Positions 4,549-37,386 of a stretch of 40,732 nucleotides of DNA are shown here, piece after piece (position 1 is the first letter of the stretch; each line of letters begins with the position of its first letter). Origin of the DNA: a virus. The notes under the pieces are model-generated. The model was not told the DNA's origin, searched no databases, and worked only from the letters and a program-made list of their open reading frames with translations. The translations under genes were made by a program, and so were the position numbers. The stretch is from UHGV virus genome UHGV-0045958; one strand, written 5' to 3'.

Positions 4549-4606
4549 AAAAAGGGCGGCAGAGCAGTCACGGAGTAAAACTGATACCGCCAAACGTCAC
4601 CAGAAA
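4549..4606 (-). ncRNA. dicF: DicF small RNA (ftsZ-targeting sRNA) with intrinsic terminator
   Basis: Minus-strand sequence 5'-TTTCTGGTGACGTTTGGCGGTATCAGTTTTACTCCGTGACTGCTCTGCCGCCCTTTTT-3' matches the recalled DicF sequence, ends in a GC stem plus U-tract, and lies immediately upstream of dicB. Confidence 0.8.
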
Positions 4607-5890: not shown

Positions 5891-6529
5891 TTAAATATCT
5901 TGTTGAATTTTAAAGCATACGCCCAATATGCAAGATAGATCATCCAGCATAATTGAAGGGTAGCGAGGATTCGTGGGGACTAAAAGAATATCCGGCCCTT
6001 CTATCTCCAGTTTACGAATGACAGGTGTTGTGGTCCCTTTGGGTAAGGCAAGGACAATATTTCCTGGTTGTACGGTTCGATCGGGATCAACAAAAACTGT
6101 TGAACCATTTGGGATGGAAACTCCCCCACCAGATGTTGACATACTGTCACTCTCTAGAACAACTGCAAAGGTATTGACCGGGATTTCTCCGACAAGCTGC
6201 ACACAAGAGGTTATTGAGGAATTTTTCATATAATCACTCCAGCTTGCTGCCTGCTGAAGTGATAGTAGCGGAACCGTTTTTATCGGCGGTAAAGATAGAT
6301 CAAGCGAATCACCTGTATTTAACTCTCCTCCATTAAGAAGCCAATTTTCGTTTACTTTCAATATTTTTGCCAGTGAACTTATGTAACGCGAGGACGGCGC
6401 TCCTCCACCGTTCATCCATTGACTTACGGAGCCTTTTGATGCGCCAGTGCCATTGACAAGGTCTTTGCCTTTCAGGTTTAGCGCATGCATACGTTGGGTT
6501 ATGCGTTCAGATATAGTTTGCTTGCTCAT
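5891..6529 (-). CDS. cI: CI-like repressor (HTH XRE domain + S24 LexA-like peptidase domain)
   Basis: 212 aa; N-terminal HTH and C-terminal S24-like autocleavage domain architecture; divergent from the cro-like gene across a 91-bp intergenic region. Confidence 0.85.
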   Translation of the reverse strand: MSKQTISERITQRMHALNLKGKDLVNGTGASKGSVSQWMNGGGAPSSRYISSLAKILKVNENWLLNGGELNTGDSLDLSLPPIKTVPLLSLQQAASWSDYMKNSSITSCVQLVGEIPVNTFAVVLESDSMSTSGGGVSIPNGSTVFVDPDRTVQPGNIVLALPKGTTTPVIRKLEIEGPDILLVPTNPRYPSIMLDDLSCILGVCFKIQQDI

Positions 6530-6620
6530 GTTTTGATTTTAAAACACAGATGGTTTTGTTTCTTGACTTTCTTTGGTTTTGATTATTAAACTTTTGACGT
6601 TCAGTTTTATGGAGCGACTC
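6530..6620. promoter_or_regulatory. divergent immunity-region promoter/operator region (candidate pRM/pR with repeated TTTTGA(T/C) motifs)
   Basis: 91-bp AT-rich spacer between the cI and cro-like starts; TTGACT -35-like hexamer at 6563-6568; about four spaced copies of GTTTTGAT-like motifs that could be operators. Confidence 0.45.
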
Positions 6621-6863
6621 ATGAAAAAATCAGAAGTATTAGGCTATTTTGGCGGAGTTGTTAAAACAGCCGCAGCTCTAGGAACGTCAAAAACCACAGT
6701 CAGCATGTGGGGGGAAGAGGTTCCGTGGAAATGGGCGTTGCTAATTCAGGCAGTCACTGCCGGGGCGCTCAAATATGAGTTACACATACCGACGGTTGTC
6801 ATTCCCGGTTCTGATCATAATCCGCCTTCTAACCAAGGGGGGATTCATGAAAATCAAGCATGA
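6621..6863 (+). CDS. Cro/YdaS-like HTH regulator
   Basis: ATG 6621 preceded by GGAG; product MKKSEVLGYFGGVVKTAAALGTSKTTVSMWGEEV... is HTH-like and sits divergent to the repressor. Confidence 0.7.
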   Translation: MKKSEVLGYFGGVVKTAAALGTSKTTVSMWGEEVPWKWALLIQAVTAGALKYELHIPTVVIPGSDHNPPSNQGGIHENQA

Positions 6864-7272
6864 ACACATCCGCATGGCGATGAATGCCTGGGCGCATCCG
6901 GACGGCGAAAAAGTACCGGCTGCGAAAATTACCAAAGCGTATTTCGAGCTGGGAATGACGTTCCCGGAACTGTATGACGACAGCCATCCGGAAGCCCTGG
7001 CTCGCAATACCCAGAAAATTTTCCGCTGGGTGGAGAAAGACACCCCTGATGCAGTTGAAAAAATTCAGGCGTTGTTACCAGCGATCGAAAAGGCAATGCC
7101 ACCTTTGCTGGTGGCCAGAATGCGCAGCCACAGTTCAGCTTATTTTCGGGAGTTGGTGGAGACGCGGGAGCGACTGGTGAGAGACGCTGATGATTTTGTC
7201 GCAGTGGCAATCGCCGGTTTCAATCAGATGAACCGTGGTGGCCCGGCAGGAAATGCTGTGGCAGTACATTGA
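6847..7272 (+). CDS. YdaT-like protein (CII-position gene)
   Basis: Starts MKIKHEHI..., as recalled for Rac YdaT; G-rich RBS (AAGGGGGG) upstream of ATG 6847; overlaps the end of the cro-like gene. Confidence 0.7.
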   Translation: MKIKHEHIRMAMNAWAHPDGEKVPAAKITKAYFELGMTFPELYDDSHPEALARNTQKIFRWVEKDTPDAVEKIQALLPAIEKAMPPLLVARMRSHSSAYFRELVETRERLVRDADDFVAVAIAGFNQMNRGGPAGNAVAVH

Positions 7273-7343
7273 CTGACAATAGTCATATCGAATCGCTTCC
7301 GGCAACTCGTGAGTAAAAAGATTCGGTATCAGAAGAGGTGAGT

Positions 7344-8414
7344 ATGGCTAACGCCTGGCTCAGATTATGGCATGACATGCCAAATGACCCTAAGTGGCGA
7401 ACAATTGCCAGGGTGTCAGGGCAGCCAATTGCAACAGTGATGGCAGTGTATATCCACCTCCTGGTGAGCGCGTCACGAAATGTCACGCGAGGTCACATTG
7501 ATGTCACGACAGAAGATTTGGCAAGTGCGCTCGACGTGACAGAAGAGGTAATTGATTCAATTTTGCAGACGATGCAGGGGCGGGTACTTGATGGTGATTT
7601 AATCACTGGATGGGAAAAACGCCAGGTGCTGAAAGAGGACAACGGCAATATTTCGCAAACCGCAAAATCTCCGGCAGAGCGCAAGAGGGCGCAGCGAGAG
7701 AGGGAAAGAAAGCGGGAACAAAATGGCGATTGTCACGGCGAGTCACGAAATGTCACGCACATGTCACGACGAGTCACGACAGATAAAGATACAGATAAAG
7801 ATACAGATCAAGAAGATCAAAACACTATGGTCCATGGCGTAAAAAACGCCACGAACCAGGCAGGGGATGTTCAGACCGTCACTCCTGGCCAGCCCGCAGG
7901 CACGACACCGGAAGCCGATTCAGCGTATGCGCTGAAAGCCGATTCGGGCGCTGTGCAGCAGGTGATGACCGCAAGGCAGGAGCAATCACACCAACTTCAG
8001 CAGCCTGAAGCCGATTCCGCCATTCAGCGGGAAGCCGATCGGGTAGTCCCGGAAAACACCGGGCAGCCTGTGGGACGAGTGGATTATCCTGATGTGTTCG
8101 AACAGGTCTGGCGGGAATACCCGTTGCGTGCCGGGGCAAACCCGAAGAAATCCGCTTTCAGTGCCTGGAAAGCCAGATTACGCGAGGGGGTGCCACCAGA
8201 GGCCATGCTGGATGGCGTGAGGCGTTACGCAAGATACCTTGCGGCTACCGGGAAAACGGGAACGGAATTTGTTCAGCGAGCGACGACGTTTTTTGGACCG
8301 GACCGGAATTTTGAAAACCCCTGGCTGCTCCCGGTAAGCGGCACGAACAACCAGCGTTGTGTGAATCATATTTCTGAACCGGATAACGAAATTCCGCCGG
8401 GCTTCAGGGGGTAA
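7344..8414 (+). CDS. replication initiation protein, O-like
   Basis: O-like N-terminus (WLRLWHDMPNDPKWRTIARVSGQ); the coding sequence carries GTCACG iteron arrays followed by an AT-rich tract, as lambda ori lies inside O. Start taken at ATG 7344 (track start GTG 7338). Confidence 0.8.
   Translation: MANAWLRLWHDMPNDPKWRTIARVSGQPIATVMAVYIHLLVSASRNVTRGHIDVTTEDLASALDVTEEVIDSILQTMQGRVLDGDLITGWEKRQVLKEDNGNISQTAKSPAERKRAQRERERKREQNGDCHGESRNVTHMSRRVTTDKDTDKDTDQEDQNTMVHGVKNATNQAGDVQTVTPGQPAGTTPEADSAYALKADSGAVQQVMTARQEQSHQLQQPEADSAIQREADRVVPENTGQPVGRVDYPDVFEQVWREYPLRAGANPKKSAFSAWKARLREGVPPEAMLDGVRRYARYLAATGKTGTEFVQRATTFFGPDRNFENPWLLPVSGTNNQRCVNHISEPDNEIPPGFRG
7471..7512. repeat. iteron cluster 1 (four GTCAC(G/A) repeats at about 10-bp phasing)
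   Basis: cGTCACGaaatGTCACGcgagGTCACAttgatGTCACGac read directly from the sequence. Confidence 0.55.
7731..7830. repeat. candidate origin of replication: five GTCACG iterons at 10-bp spacing plus AT-rich repeats
   Basis: tGTCACGgcgaGTCACGaaatGTCACGcacatGTCACGacgaGTCACGacag followed by gataaagatacagataaagatacagatcaagaagatcaaaac (GATAAAGATACA x2). Confidence 0.6.
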
Positions 8415-8454
8415 GTGTTAATTTCTGGTCATGAGGTAATTTTCAGGAGGGCTT

Positions 8455-8877
8455 GTGGCAAAAGTTTTTACACAAGAAGAGCGGGAAAAAATTAAAGGAC
8501 AGGTTCTTGAACTCGTACGCCAGAGTGGGCGCGAGACGTTACGACAACTGGAAGCTAAAACTGGGGCAACAAGATATCTGATGAGCGTTCTGGCCAGAGA
8601 GCTGGTTGCCAGTGGCGATGTATACAATTCTGGCTACGGGTTATTCCCGTCTGAACAGGCTCGTAAAGACTGGCAAAATGCCCGCAAAAAATTATCGAGG
8701 GCAAAGCTGAAGAAACCGGTTGTGGTTGATCCGGACCTTATCTGGTCGTTACCTGACGGAGAAATACGTCGCTACGACAGTCGCCTAAACATAATCTGTC
8801 GCGAGTGCCGGAAGAGTGAAGCTATGCAGCGTGTACTGGCTTTCTATCAGGGTAATTTTCAGGAGGCGGTACTGTGA
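8455..8877 (+). CDS. hypothetical protein (possible wHTH regulator or replication accessory)
   Basis: 140-aa ORF with GTG start and AGGAGG 4 nt upstream; basic, helix-rich; no family recognised. Confidence 0.5.
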   Translation: MAKVFTQEEREKIKGQVLELVRQSGRETLRQLEAKTGATRYLMSVLARELVASGDVYNSGYGLFPSEQARKDWQNARKKLSRAKLKKPVVVDPDLIWSLPDGEIRRYDSRLNIICRECRKSEAMQRVLAFYQGNFQEAVL

Positions 8878-8934
8878 GTGAAATTAGCTATCAGGCTTCA
8901 ATTACCGCTGGCATTCGCATCAAAGGAGAGGAGC

Positions 8935-9291
8935 ATGGAAATAAAACCAGAGGATGAGTTAAGCAATATCGTTTTATTTCCGGTAAAAGAGGATGACCCT
9001 CGTAATCAGGTTAATTTTCTTTATGAGCCATCGGAAAGACCATATTGTCATCACGCCTCTGTCCGGGTTGACGAAAAAGAGCGTCAGGTCCGCTGTAAAA
9101 TCTGCGGTGCAGTTGTGGAGCCATTTGACTGGATGCTCTCTGTGGCGAAAAGAGAAACCAGACTGGCAGATGATGTAAGGCTCTTGCGTCAGGAGGAGCG
9201 GGAAAGGCGAAAAAATATAGAAAAGCTAATTCAGATTGAGCGTAACGCGAAAGCGCGGATACGCAGGGCGACAAAATCCAGAACTGAATAA
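8935..9291 (+). CDS. hypothetical zinc-ribbon / coiled-coil protein
   Basis: ATG 8935 with strong RBS (AAAGGAGAGGAG); CHH...CKICG motif and Arg/Glu-rich C-terminus; GTG 8878 is an alternative start. Confidence 0.45.
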   Translation: MEIKPEDELSNIVLFPVKEDDPRNQVNFLYEPSERPYCHHASVRVDEKERQVRCKICGAVVEPFDWMLSVAKRETRLADDVRLLRQEERERRKNIEKLIQIERNAKARIRRATKSRTE

Positions 9292-9383
9292 TTAAATTTA
9301 GCTCTGTTAAAAATTTAATCCTTAACCGGAGGGATTTCTGCACCCTCAGAACATCAGGAGGCCCCCCCCCAAGGGGGGGGGGG

Positions 9384-9448
9384 NNNNNNNNNNNNNNNNN
9401 NNNNNNNNNNNNNNNNNNNNNNNNNNNNNNNNNNNNNNNNNNNNNNNN
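9384..9448. other. assembly gap (65 N) flanked by C/G homopolymer hairpin sequence
   Basis: N-run; flanks gccccccccc aagggggggggggg / gggagggggggg. Confidence 0.95.
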
Positions 9449-10559: not shown

Positions 10560-10741
10560 TAGAATGACTGCGGGTGCTTGAGGCTATCTGTCTCAGGCAT
10601 GAACACCAAAAGGCAGATAGAGAAAAGCCCCAGTTAACATTACGCGTCCTGCAAGACGCTTAACATTAATCTGAGGCTCAATCTATGAACGGCAAATCTA
10701 GGTTAGCCTCTTACGTGCCGAAAGGCAAGGAGAAGCAGGCT
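10560..10741. promoter_or_regulatory. hok mRNA leader with in-frame mok-like upstream start (ATG 10685); expected location of an antisense Sok-like RNA
   Basis: Inferred from hok-family type I toxin-antitoxin organisation; the ORF from 10685 extends hok by 19 codons in frame; no Sok sequence was verified. Confidence 0.3.
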
Positions 10742-10897
10742 ATGAAGCAGCAAAAGGCGATGTTAATCGCCCTGATCGTCATCTGTTTAACCGTCATTGT
10801 GACGGCACTGGTAACGAGGAAAGACCTCTGCGAGGTACGAATCCGAACCGGCCAGACGGAGGTCGCTGTCTTCACAGCTTACGAACCTGAGGAGTAA
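10742..10897 (+). CDS. hokD: Hok/Gef-family type I toxin (HokD/RelF-like)
   Basis: 51-aa product MKQQKAMLIALIVICLTVIVTALVTRKDLCEVRIRTGQTEVAVFTAYEPEE matches recalled HokD (RelF); AAGGAG RBS upstream. Confidence 0.8.
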   Translation: MKQQKAMLIALIVICLTVIVTALVTRKDLCEVRIRTGQTEVAVFTAYEPEE

Positions 10898-13745: not shown

Positions 13746-13821
13746 GGCCCTTTAGCTCAGTGGTGAGAGCGAGCGACTCATAATCGCCAGGTCGCTGGTT
13801 CAAATCCAGCAAGGGCCACCA
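13746..13821 (+). tRNA. ileZ: tRNA-Ile2 (CAU anticodon; ileX/ileZ-like), possibly tRNA-Met
   Basis: 76-nt cloverleaf GGCCCUU..AGCUCAGUGGUGAGAGC..CUCAUAA..GGUCGCUGGUUCAAAUCCAGCAAGGGCCACCA with encoded CCA; very similar to recalled E. coli ileX. Confidence 0.8.
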
Positions 13822-14163: not shown

Positions 14164-14364
14164 ATTGTCTGGCTGCCGGAGAATTTGTTAAAAATTACAT
14201 CGCATGGTGAATCCCCCTCAGCGGCGGGGCATCTGGCAAAGTGTATGATCCAGAGAACATGCAAATTCAGTAGACAGGCTGAATTTACCGGGAGGCCCCT
14301 GGCACCATGCGACAGACAGAAATTAGGCTATACTTCAGCCCCTCTCCGGAGGGGCTTTTCTGTG
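14164..14364 (+). repeat. structured terminator-capped element, copy A (candidate sRNA or late-leader element)
   Basis: Shares with copy B a promoter-like 5' block, the gcatggtg/caccatgc long-range complement, a ccgggaggc block and an identical AGCCCCTC-tccg-GAGGGGCT terminator followed by a T-tract. Confidence 0.5.
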
Positions 14365-14632
14365 CAGGATGTGTCACAGTTTCCTGAATTCTGAGTACTG
14401 TCCTGTTACTCAGGGTGCTATATTTTCTGACGTGATGAAAGTCTGCCGGAAGGCGGAACGTATCGGAAATGACCCAGTAGAGAAAACGTTGACTCAGATA
14501 CCGATGCTGAGTTACCGGGAAACCGGCATCACATGACCGCTATCCTTCCAGGCTCGCTCCGGCGGGCCTTTTTACTGCAGAAAACAGTTTTCCCGTAAAA
14601 TGCCACGTTGCTCATAATTCAGGCTGGCGATT

Positions 14633-14830
14633 ATTGTCTGGCCGGCGGGAAGTTTGTTAAAAAATTTCGCATGGTGAATCCCCCTGTGCGGAGGGGTAAT
14701 CAGCGAGTAGGTATATGGGATAATCGCGGATTCAGGTGCTGGTACTGAATTCACCGGGAGGCACCCGGCACCATGCAATGGCACATAGCGCCACTCTCCA
14801 GCCCCTCTCCGGAGGGGCTGTTTATATTGA
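14633..14830 (+). repeat. structured terminator-capped element, copy B
   Basis: Imperfect duplicate of copy A with the same terminal hairpin (14800-14819). Confidence 0.5.
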
Positions 14831-25937: not shown

Positions 25938-25959
25938 NNNNNNNNNNNNNNNNNNNNNN
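25938..25959. other. assembly gap (22 N) inside a C/G/T homopolymer hairpin region
   Basis: N-run; flanks ccccgccggggggggg ttttttttttt / cccccccccc ggggggggggg ttttttttt. Confidence 0.95.
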
Positions 25960-36571: not shown

Positions 36572-36627
36572 NNNNNNNNNNNNNNNNNNNNNNNNNNNNN
36601 NNNNNNNNNNNNNNNNNNNNNNNNNNN
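36572..36627. other. assembly gap (56 N) splitting a terminator hairpin (duplicated flank cagaaatg)
   Basis: Flanks ggcgccagaaatg / cagaaatggcgcctttttt; collapsing the duplication restores GGCGCC-agaaat-GGCGCC plus a T-tract. Confidence 0.95.
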
Positions 36628-37314: not shown

Positions 37315-37386
37315 NNNNNNNNNNNNNNNNNNNNNNNNNNNNNNNNNNNNNNNNNNNNNNNNNNNNNNNNNNNNNNNNNNNNNNNN
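37315..37386. other. assembly gap (72 N) splitting a terminator hairpin (duplicated flank ccggttcaggcg)
   Basis: Flanks gcccgccggttcaggcg / ccggttcaggcgggctttttt; collapsing the duplication restores GCCCGCC-ggttca-GGCGGGC plus a T-tract. Confidence 0.95.

Follow-up and report, generated by a model that had tools for sequence, protein, structure and literature searches.

The window analysed here is the whole stretch of 40,732 nucleotides (nt) of the virus genome UHGV-0045958, and its region between positions 7000 and 8400 holds a single long open reading frame (ORF). This ORF corresponds to a replication initiator gene of the "phage replisome organizer" type, whose start we took as the ATG located two codons after the GTG of the ORF listing. 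Within the frame of this gene we observed two arrays of a short direct repeat, hereafter called iterons. The first array lies in the part coding for the N-terminal domain (N-domain), and the second lies in the part coding for a linker that precedes the C-terminal domain (C-domain). The second array is directly followed by a purine-rich tract and then by a palindrome. As developed below, these elements probably constitute a replication origin that is embedded in the gene of its own initiator. The coordinates of all features, in base pairs (bp) of the window, and the corresponding amino acids (aa) are collected in Table 1.

Table 1. Features of the initiator gene and of its neighbours in the window (AF2, AlphaFold2; pLDDT, predicted local distance difference test score).
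Feature	Position	Strand	Remarks
Replication initiator gene, "phage replisome organizer" type	7344..8414	+	356 aa; ORF; all origin elements inside the frame
N-domain coding region (aa 1-128), presumed iteron-binding	7344..7727	+	Sub-threshold Pfam matches, AF2 helices
Array 1, four direct GTCAC(G/A) iterons	7472..7508	+	GTCACG at 7472, 7482, 7503; GTCACA at 7492
Inverted iteron (CGTGAC on + strand)	7535..7540	-	32 bp start-to-start downstream of the last direct array 1 copy
Array 2, five direct GTCACG iterons, candidate core initiator-binding array	7732..7778	+	Starts at 7732, 7742, 7752, 7763, 7773
Purine-rich, AT-rich tract, candidate DNA unwinding element	7779..7826	+	ACAGATAAAGAT x2.9, then GATCAAGAAGATCAAAAC
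Palindrome, 13-nt arms, 5-nt loop	7828-7840/7846-7858	.	Repeat search
C-terminal helical domain coding region (aa 244-332), presumably host/helicase-recruiting	8073..8339	+	AF2 pLDDT ~90
C-terminal 24 residues (GTNNQRCVNHISEPDNEIPPGFRG, aa 333-356), DnaT-like	8340..8411	+	PDB 6aep, NCBIfam DnaT
CI-like S24 repressor	5891-6529	-	Upstream neighbour
DUF977/Ren-like protein	8455-8877		Next gene after the initiator; then Zn-ribbon protein

The iterons of array 1 are spaced by 10, 10 and 11 bp and encode aa 43-56, which correspond to the end of a predicted helix (aa 29-49) and to the loop behind it. The inverted copy corresponds to aa 64-66, located between the predicted helices 56-63 and 67-77. In array 2, the spacing is 10, 10, 11 and 10 bp, and the encoded aa 130-145 belong to a disordered linker. 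The average spacing of the iterons is about 10.3 bp, their conserved core covers 6-8 bp, and the copies within the arrays are all direct. Moreover, arrays 1 and 2 have in common a 17-nt string (GTCACGAAATGTCACGC) and a terminal 11-nt string (GTCACGACAGA). An initial annotation of the window had proposed two such arrays, and we located the GTCACG and GTCACA copies at the claimed places, i.e., at 7472-7508 and 7732-7778. The "exact 10-bp phasing" that it attributed to array 2 has to be amended by one 11-bp step. The inverted copy at 7535-7540 and the palindrome at 7828-7858 had been overlooked in that annotation.

Over the entire window, GTCACG is not overrepresented (23 copies found versus 18.8 expected). 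Nine of the 23 fall within 307 bp, and no further cluster (an oriR-like site, by reference to Bacillus phage SPP1) was detected elsewhere in the window. The largest same-strand cluster per 50 nt comprised five copies, compared to a maximum of two in Markov-1 simulations (n = 100). When synonymous codons were permuted, with the protein and the codon set fixed (n = 2000), the gene contained 1.8 GTCACG copies on average and never more than 6, compared to 8 observed on the coding strand. The clustering thus clearly exceeds what chance would produce. A scan of IMG/VR yielded 80 near-identical Escherichia coli copies of the locus, which are uninformative on diversity but indicate that the iterons hardly vary; all ten sites were intact in 73 of 78 near-identical E. 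coli prophage copies.

We then considered the possibility that the repeats are the by-product of a repeated peptide motif (SRNVT.. or ..VTT), given that SRNVT is encoded in both arrays, at aa 44-48 and at aa 134-138. The likelihood of this explanation appears practically negligible. Indeed, a codon repeat cannot have a period of 10-11 nt, and the hexamer starts at codon positions 3, 1, 2 and 1 in array 1 and at codon positions 2, 3, 1, 3 and 1 in array 2. It is translated accordingly as ASR, VT, GH and VT in the former and as CH, ESR, VT, MSR and VT in the latter. The occurrence of the hexamer in all three frames indicates that the repeat belongs to the DNA and not to the peptide. Synonymous permutation destroyed the repeats, and from one iteron class to another (see below) entirely different peptides are encoded by the arrays, with the DNA layout being kept. 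This was further supported by an analysis of 25 distinct genes of the GTCAC class that are of equal length and share a mean of 69% nt identity. In these genes, the third-codon positions within the array 1 hexamers and the inverted copy were conserved at 0.94, compared to 0.55 for the other third positions (Mann-Whitney, p = 5e-6); the positions in the former group are mostly four-fold degenerate. The peptide-repeat explanation was thus rejected on the basis of the frames, the synonymous permutation and the third-position constraint. The initial annotation had named beforehand, as an outcome that would speak against its proposal, that the repeats are "simply a codon-repeat protein feature"; we observed instead that the DNA motif and its phasing are kept at sites that encode different peptides. 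Altogether, these comparisons show that both arrays are selected at the DNA level, independently of the encoded peptides.

In a further step, relatives of the N-domain were searched with tblastn and were found in phages of Aeromonas, Pseudomonas, Ralstonia and Microcystis, among others. The N-domains of Aeromonas phage pAEv1818 and Pseudomonas phage P7869 are 73-74% identical to that of the initiator (tblastn), and their C-domains are different. Both phages carry GTCAC at the same gene positions, namely, 129, 139, 149 and 160, with an inverted copy at 193 and further copies from 389 onward. At lower identity, a metagenomic phage (L006; 48%) carries GAACGC in both array places, and Ralstonia phage Hennie (38%) carries GCAACG in both array places together with inverted copies after array 1. 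Three further loci (L007, L010 and L011) possess the linker array only. A scan of one genome per species added 74 loci from many orders, so that the sample covers phages as well as Enterobacterales, Pseudomonadales, Burkholderiales, Sphingomonadales, Desulfovibrionales and cyanophages. The loci were anchored on the protein motifs DPKW and W..RQ. The iteron 5-mer was derived from the linker zone only and was then sought in the N-domain zone; a spacing of 9-12 bp was required, and purine-only and AT-only words were excluded. A phased linker array of at least three copies was found in 71 of 77 anchored loci. The same 5-mer was present in at least two phased copies in the N-domain zone of 57 of these 71 loci (80%) and in at least three copies in 49 of them. 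By comparison, control words taken from a mismatched class gave an N-domain array in only 112 of 3355 pairs (3.3%).

Most of the variation in the iteron core falls on its first three positions, and the variants include GTCACG, GTAACG, GTGACG, GCAACG, CGAACGC and ACTACG. Within a genome, arrays 1 and 2 and the inverted copies carry the same variant and switch together. For example, both arrays of an Erwinia locus (L116) consist of GTCACG, with CGTGAC as inverted copies, and the sister locus in Enterobacter (L117) has GTAACG and CGTTAC throughout. Similarly, the GTAACG locus of Marinobacter (L122) is nested in a GTCACG clade. Read informally, the neighbor-joining tree on which these relationships are based suggests several independent iteron switches. 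The inverted copy is found at the same relative position (~150) in most loci of the GTCAC class.

The array 1 site is the only indel-prone part of the N-domain alignment, and the peptides encoded there differ with the iteron class. Length variants were observed in the form of 7-residue insertions (21 nt, corresponding to two iterons) in array 1 and of extra iterons in array 2 (protein variants P0003, P0022, P0057 and P0094), and an E. albertii locus (L093) has six array 1 copies. Only steps of 21 nt preserve the reading frame together with a 10.5-bp period, which explains the alternation of 10 and 11 bp. By inspection of positions, the helical phase between the two arrays did not seem constant across homologues, a comparison that is confounded by the reading frame. 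The variants P0057 and P0094 and their kin (from E. coli O157 and others; H47-H49) share 85-88% nt identity with the initiator gene in the N-domain and iteron region and carry another C-domain, PF17948 (DnaT-like, single-stranded-DNA-binding). Some of these PF17948 fusions have two extra iterons in array 1.

The Shigella phage 75/02 Stx (L001) provides a case of module exchange. The N-domain of its "primosomal protein I" is unrelated to that of our initiator, and the two proteins are related from aa 158 onward, with 64% identity (BLASTP) that includes the C-domain. The junction of homology is located immediately after the tract, and the shared part includes the palindrome. Phage 75/02 Stx has its own matched repeats: AAGGGGCTTC occurs as two direct copies, 11 bp apart, in the part coding for the N-domain (L001 2578-2598) and as two inverted copies, also 11 bp apart, just before an A-rich (CAGGAA)n tract (L001 2832-2852). 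The N-domain and the repeats have thus been swapped while the C-domain stayed, indicating that they move jointly as one specificity module, as is the case for the O genes of lambdoid phages. Moreover, the layout found in this phage indicates that the two-site arrangement is not limited to one N-domain family.

We infer that the N-domain is the iteron-binding part of the initiator, because the iteron variant follows the lineage of the N-domain and not the host, the neighboring genes or the C-domain. The repeats could in principle be bound by another factor, such as a host protein or the CII/YdaT-like or DUF977 neighbor, in which case the origin could be elsewhere; the fold search on the initiator, which gave no support for a DNA-binding fold, is compatible with such a scenario. 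We consider it highly improbable, since N-domain lineage and iteron variant remain matched in E. coli, Ralstonia, Sphingomonas and Desulfovibrio, in which the neighbors and the C-domains differ, and since a swap of the N-domain coincides with a swap of the repeats, the C-domain being unchanged. The lack of any other GTCACG cluster in the window also argues against it.

A functionless array 1 has to be considered as well. It would be a relic duplication of array 2 that is kept alike by gene conversion and tolerated in a protein loop, consistent with the identity of the 17-nt string and of the 11-nt end in both arrays, with the position of array 1 in the indel-prone part of the alignment and with its loss in some lineages. 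This explanation is improbable in view of the retention of array 1 in 80% of the loci, down to an N-domain identity of about 30% and across at least five iteron variants. Array 1 also keeps its 10-11 bp phasing, and its four-fold degenerate sites are near-invariant. Moreover, many loci keep the inverted copy, for which array 2 offers no counterpart to convert from, and the same two-site layout is found with the non-homologous N-domain family of phage 75/02 Stx.

Directly after array 2, 2.9 copies of ACAGATAAAGAT were detected at 7779-7813 using Tandem Repeats Finder. The complete 48-nt tract is 71% AT and 71% purine on the coding strand. It forms the least stable 40-bp stretch of the region 6500-9300; it deviates by 3.6 standard deviations from the mean of the gene, and within the window it ranks at the 99.7th percentile. 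Array 2 and the tract together encode aa 130-161, and array 2, the tract and the palindrome are all located in the disordered linker. We surveyed the 54 nt that follow the last linker iteron in the 71 loci with a linker array (L003-L011 and L092-L164). A purine tract initiated by YAGA starts at most 6 nt after the last iteron in 61 of them, with a mean of 76% purine and 64% AT. Frequent forms of this tract are (AGATAA)n and (AGATAC)n, and (AGAGAC)n also occurs, with AGA recurring about every 6 nt on the purine strand. The tract is read in all three frames (in 53, 14 and 4 loci), as DKDK, DTDT, REEK or QIRE, indicating that it is a DNA-level element too and not only an acidic linker. Its AGA periodicity hints at a sequence-specific single-strand or melting element. 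The survey shows that array 2 is a universal element directly adjoined by a conserved purine tract of low stability, and that array 1 is frequent but dispensable.

Read on the minus strand, the palindrome has the score of a terminator-like hairpin, and the T-rich strand of the tract comes after it. Phage 75/02 Stx has retained the palindrome, with a compensatory change from T:A to A:T at the loop-closing pair. Among the loci, the palindrome is represented by two independent DNA sequences with one compensatory pair, which is too few to conclude on covariation.

At the protein level, the initiator corresponds to phrog_3729, "replication initiation protein" (E = 7e-257), and PHROG replisome-organizer families match it at E = 7e-6 and 1e-4. 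Its NCBI name is "phage replisome organizer", and its protein cluster has 5786 members. The whole protein has no Pfam match at E <= 0.01, and only Phage_rep_org_N, HTH_Crp_2 and PhyR_sigma2 were retrieved at E <= 10. The N-domain aligned with positions 1-119 of the 121 positions of Phage_rep_org_N (PF09681) at E = 0.008, with 16.6 bits versus a cut-off of 23.3; this profile matched one of nine diverse members of the initiator family. HTH_Crp_2 matched aa 39-79 at E = 0.015. The AF2 model, with a mean pLDDT of 60.5, predicts five helices in aa 1-79 with moderate confidence (aa 2-11, 16-25, 29-49, 56-63 and 67-77) and a disordered linker at aa 128-243. The N-domain is conserved from Enterobacterales to cyanophages. 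Homology to lambda O was rejected, since no Pfam Phage_rep_O match was obtained.

The C-domain matches phrog_1701, "DnaD-like helicase loader". Residues 333-356 matched residues 73-96 of PDB 6aep, "Primosomal protein 1" (E = 0.003), which represent the C-terminal end of E. coli DnaT. Likewise, NCBIfam DnaT (NF002770) matched at E = 7e-4, with 19.3 bits versus a cut-off of 201, and only the last 24 residues of the initiator were aligned. Homology to DnaT over the full length, a name used in some phage records, was thus rejected, since the match is confined to these 24 residues. Many relatives with the same C-domain terminate in ..IPPGFRG. A 2026 paper on the DnaT preprimosome assigns no role to the last residues of DnaT.

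The gene is part of the early-right operon of a Qin/Rac-like lambdoid prophage, in which genes for P22-Cro-like and CII/YdaT-like proteins, the initiator and the DUF977/Ren-like protein follow each other in this order. In relatives with the same N-domain or C-domain (L001, L003, L004, L008 and L010), a gene for DnaC, DnaB or a primase-helicase is located directly downstream of the initiator gene. Identical or 97-98% identical genes are present in seven E. coli phage records, and the annotations given to the initiator in phage records vary between "DNA replication protein O", "primosomal protein I" and "replisome organiser". The N-domain and origin DNA were found in 2078 of 5426 complete E. coli genomes. 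Within the gene, the disordered middle, which encodes PEADS.. motifs, contains a 36-nt direct repeat (7908-7943 and 8004-8039; 96 nt apart, with 75% identity), and common protein variants of 324 aa lack exactly 32 residues at this repeat region. In the rest of the window, several Rfam matches exceeded the gathering score. These were the DicF antisense RNA (4554-4605, minus strand), the sok antitoxin RNA of hok/sok (10572-10747, plus strand), a tRNA (13746-13818, plus strand) and two tandem copies of the small RNA STnc100 (14172-14365 and 14641-14829, plus strand), a set that fits a lambdoid prophage of the Qin/Rac-like type. Masked or unresolved letters form runs of N at 9384-9448, 25938-25959, 36572-36627 and 37315-37386.

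Taken together, the comparative evidence points to the region probably being a bipartite, lambda-style phage replication origin embedded in the initiator gene, with array 1 as an auxiliary part. The N-domain of the encoded protein would bind both arrays, whose spacing of 10-11 bp aligns the iteron sites along the same side of the helix. The core origin would be array 2, directly adjoined by the tract and the palindrome; initiator oligomers would melt the tract there, and the C-domain would bring in the host helicase system. By analogy with lambda and Shiga toxin (Stx) phages (PMC7466680) and with oriL of SPP1 (PMC5737612), we infer that melting and helicase entry take place at array 2 and the tract. 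About 260 bp upstream, in the sequence coding for the DNA-binding domain, array 1 and the inverted copy would serve as an auxiliary initiator-binding array. Initiator bound there would contact initiator bound to array 2, looping about 225 bp, and the larger complex would favor melting. Such cooperation between the arrays by looping is our preferred, if speculative, reading.

The initial annotation had likewise seen a lambda-style origin in array 2 and the AT-rich tract. This view gains support from the recurrence of the same anatomy, between the N-domain and C-domain parts, in 71 loci and from the position of the tract as the least stable 40 bp of 6500-9300. It had also proposed that the upstream array might be either a duplicated initiator-binding site or an autoregulatory site. 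The former is a fair description of a selected DNA element that carries the same iteron as array 2, although the sequence is compatible with both. The lambda parallel was taken too far in two respects. The gene was called "O-like", a term that does not fit the lack of a Phage_rep_O match and a Phage_rep_org_N match that stays below threshold, and the iterons were compared to those of lambda O, which are longer than the short direct repeats found here at intervals of about 10.3 bp.

Several points weigh against the reading as a bipartite origin. The N-domain matches Phage_rep_org_N at a sub-threshold score only, and its designation as a DNA-binding domain derives from analogy and a weak helix-turn-helix match. 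A Foldseek search of the AF2 model against the PDB did not return any significant fold match, the best E value being 2.2. No helicase or loader gene, of the P type or of any other, follows the initiator gene in this phage, in which 8455-9291 encodes the DUF977/Ren-like and Zn-ribbon proteins. Array 1 is absent in 14 of the 71 loci (no copy in 12 and one copy in 2), indicating that it is not essential to the initiator family. The co-variation counts are raw counts of loci, uncorrected for phylogeny, and the similarity between the arrays could come in part from gene conversion by array 2. Moreover, the sequence fits a positive and a negative role of array 1 alike.

Such a negative role could consist of titration of the initiator, of handcuffing with array 2 on the same or a sister molecule, or of a block of transcription or translation of the initiator gene when array 1 is occupied, a situation reminiscent of the control iterons and inverted half-iterons known from iteron plasmids. 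We regard negative control as rather unlikely, even though several features of the locus would be compatible with it. Array 1 carries the same iteron as array 2 without an adjoining unstable tract, and it is accompanied by a conserved inverted copy. In iteron plasmids such as pSC101, F and R6K, inverted repeats serve autorepression. Array 1 is dispensable in 20% of the loci, as an accessory control element might be, and it is located inside the transcription unit that starts from the early rightward promoter region. In contrast, a scan for promoter-like sequences was empty at array 1, with an overall count at chance level, so that an internal promoter that would make array 1 an operator was rejected as none was found beyond chance. 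With no promoter overlapping array 1, classical operator-type autorepression does not apply. A limitation of copy number would also be of little use to a lytic or induced phage. We thus rate positive cooperation somewhat above negative control for array 1, because no promoter is involved and because a phage origin needs little copy control.

A broader reading, which we put forward tentatively as possible but doubtful, is that the origin strictly requires the sequence coding for the DNA-binding domain as its second half, or that this sequence acts as a built-in handcuffing switch, making this a "self-encoding" bipartite origin across the family. To fire or to limit replication, the protein would have to occupy both the linker array and the DNA encoding its own binding domain, with a loop of about 225 bp in between. 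Under this reading, the module, which has a DnaT-like tail and no loader of its own, may reach the host helicase via the restart primosome. If this were true, the binding specificity, the two sets of sites and the loop sequence of the binding domain would be locked in joint evolution. The role of array 1 is directly testable, because synonymous changes suffice to remove its sites.

An origin made of iterons and an AT-rich tract inside an initiator gene is of an already known kind. New elements are the origin anatomy of a very common uncharacterised initiator family, the co-varying second array in the sequence coding for the binding domain, the 21-nt indel rule and the purine hexamer-repeat tract. 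In the searchable literature, we found none of these four elements and no description of the origin or iterons of the replisome-organizer initiator family in E. coli, and a paper on the Eru replication region of Stx phages makes no mention of iterons or origins. The initiator/origin module is among the commonest prophage replication modules of E. coli, being present in more than one-third of the genomes, and related modules exist in O157 prophages, in Proteobacteria at large and in cyanophages. The comparative data map a candidate origin down to the iteron core, its phasing, the unwinding tract and the palindrome. Moreover, the natural specificity switches (GTCACG, GTAACG, GTGACG, GCAACG and CGAACGC) could be used to learn how the DNA is read and to build orthogonal origin/initiator pairs. 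The second array, lying in the sequence that codes for the binding domain, clearly illustrates how a protein code and a DNA-signal code can overlap.

Arrangements comparable to the one described here are found in several systems. The centromere parC of plasmid R1 is reported to contain phased iterons in two sets of five, and one protein coats each set separately (PMC2241845). Our locus resembles parC in its two phased iteron sets and differs from it in that parC is a non-coding partition site and promoter and not a replication origin. A closer functional counterpart of two separated clusters of one short repeat is offered by the satellite phage P4. Its ori and crr are repeat clusters about 4.5 kb apart that are both bound by the alpha protein, and the second cluster is required in cis for replication. 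Our arrays are, in contrast to those of P4, much closer to each other than 4.5 kb, the P4 initiator is a primase-helicase, and the P4 repeats are not known to be read as part of a DNA-binding domain.

Iteron plasmids such as P1 (incC/incA), F, R6K and pSC101 have non-coding iterons of 17-22 bp. Their second array is a proven negative regulator acting by handcuffing, and inverted repeats overlap the rep promoter. The initiator locus shares with them helix-phased direct repeats to which the replicon's own initiator binds (presumably so in our case), a second array outside the minimal origin and inverted copies. It differs in that all sites are inside coding sequence and that no promoter is involved.

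The gene for G38P of Bacillus phage SPP1 contains oriL, in which "AB boxes" are located next to an AT-rich unwinding element, and a second G38P-binding locus, oriR, is found elsewhere in the genome, outside gene 38 (PMC5737612). Similarly to G38P/oriL, and also to lactococcal and Lactobacillus replisome organizers, our initiator is of a non-AAA+ type and has a probable origin in its own gene, with repeats by an AT-rich element. The replisome organizer name (NCBI and PHROG), the weak end-to-end match to Phage_rep_org_N and the presence of a second site are further points in common. However, the homology is sub-threshold, and the second array is in the same gene here, in contrast to oriR. SPP1 also differs in that it encodes its own helicase and loader.

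The iterons of lambda are 18-19 bp long and have an internal dyad symmetry, and a palindrome follows the lambda tract. In contrast, the repeats described here are direct, with a core of 6-8 bp every 10-11 bp, and a separate second array with an inverted copy is present about 260 bp upstream, in the sequence coding for the DNA-binding domain. Moreover, the initiator is not an O homologue, and no P-like gene follows. Iterons and an AT-rich tract inside O were described for lambda and for Stx phages, the latter with six iterons, the extra ones being upstream (PMC7466680). Our locus is thus similar to some lambda-type relatives in having additional upstream iterons. As for gene O of lambda and of the Stx phages 933W and P27, the probable origin described here is located inside the initiator gene, between the parts encoding the DNA-binding N-domain and the C-terminal recruiting domain. 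The order of the elements is also the same, with presumed initiator-binding repeats followed by an A+T-rich tract, which is predicted to melt here, and then by a palindrome. Finally, similarly to what is known for lambda, the N-domain and the iterons are exchanged between phages as one module.

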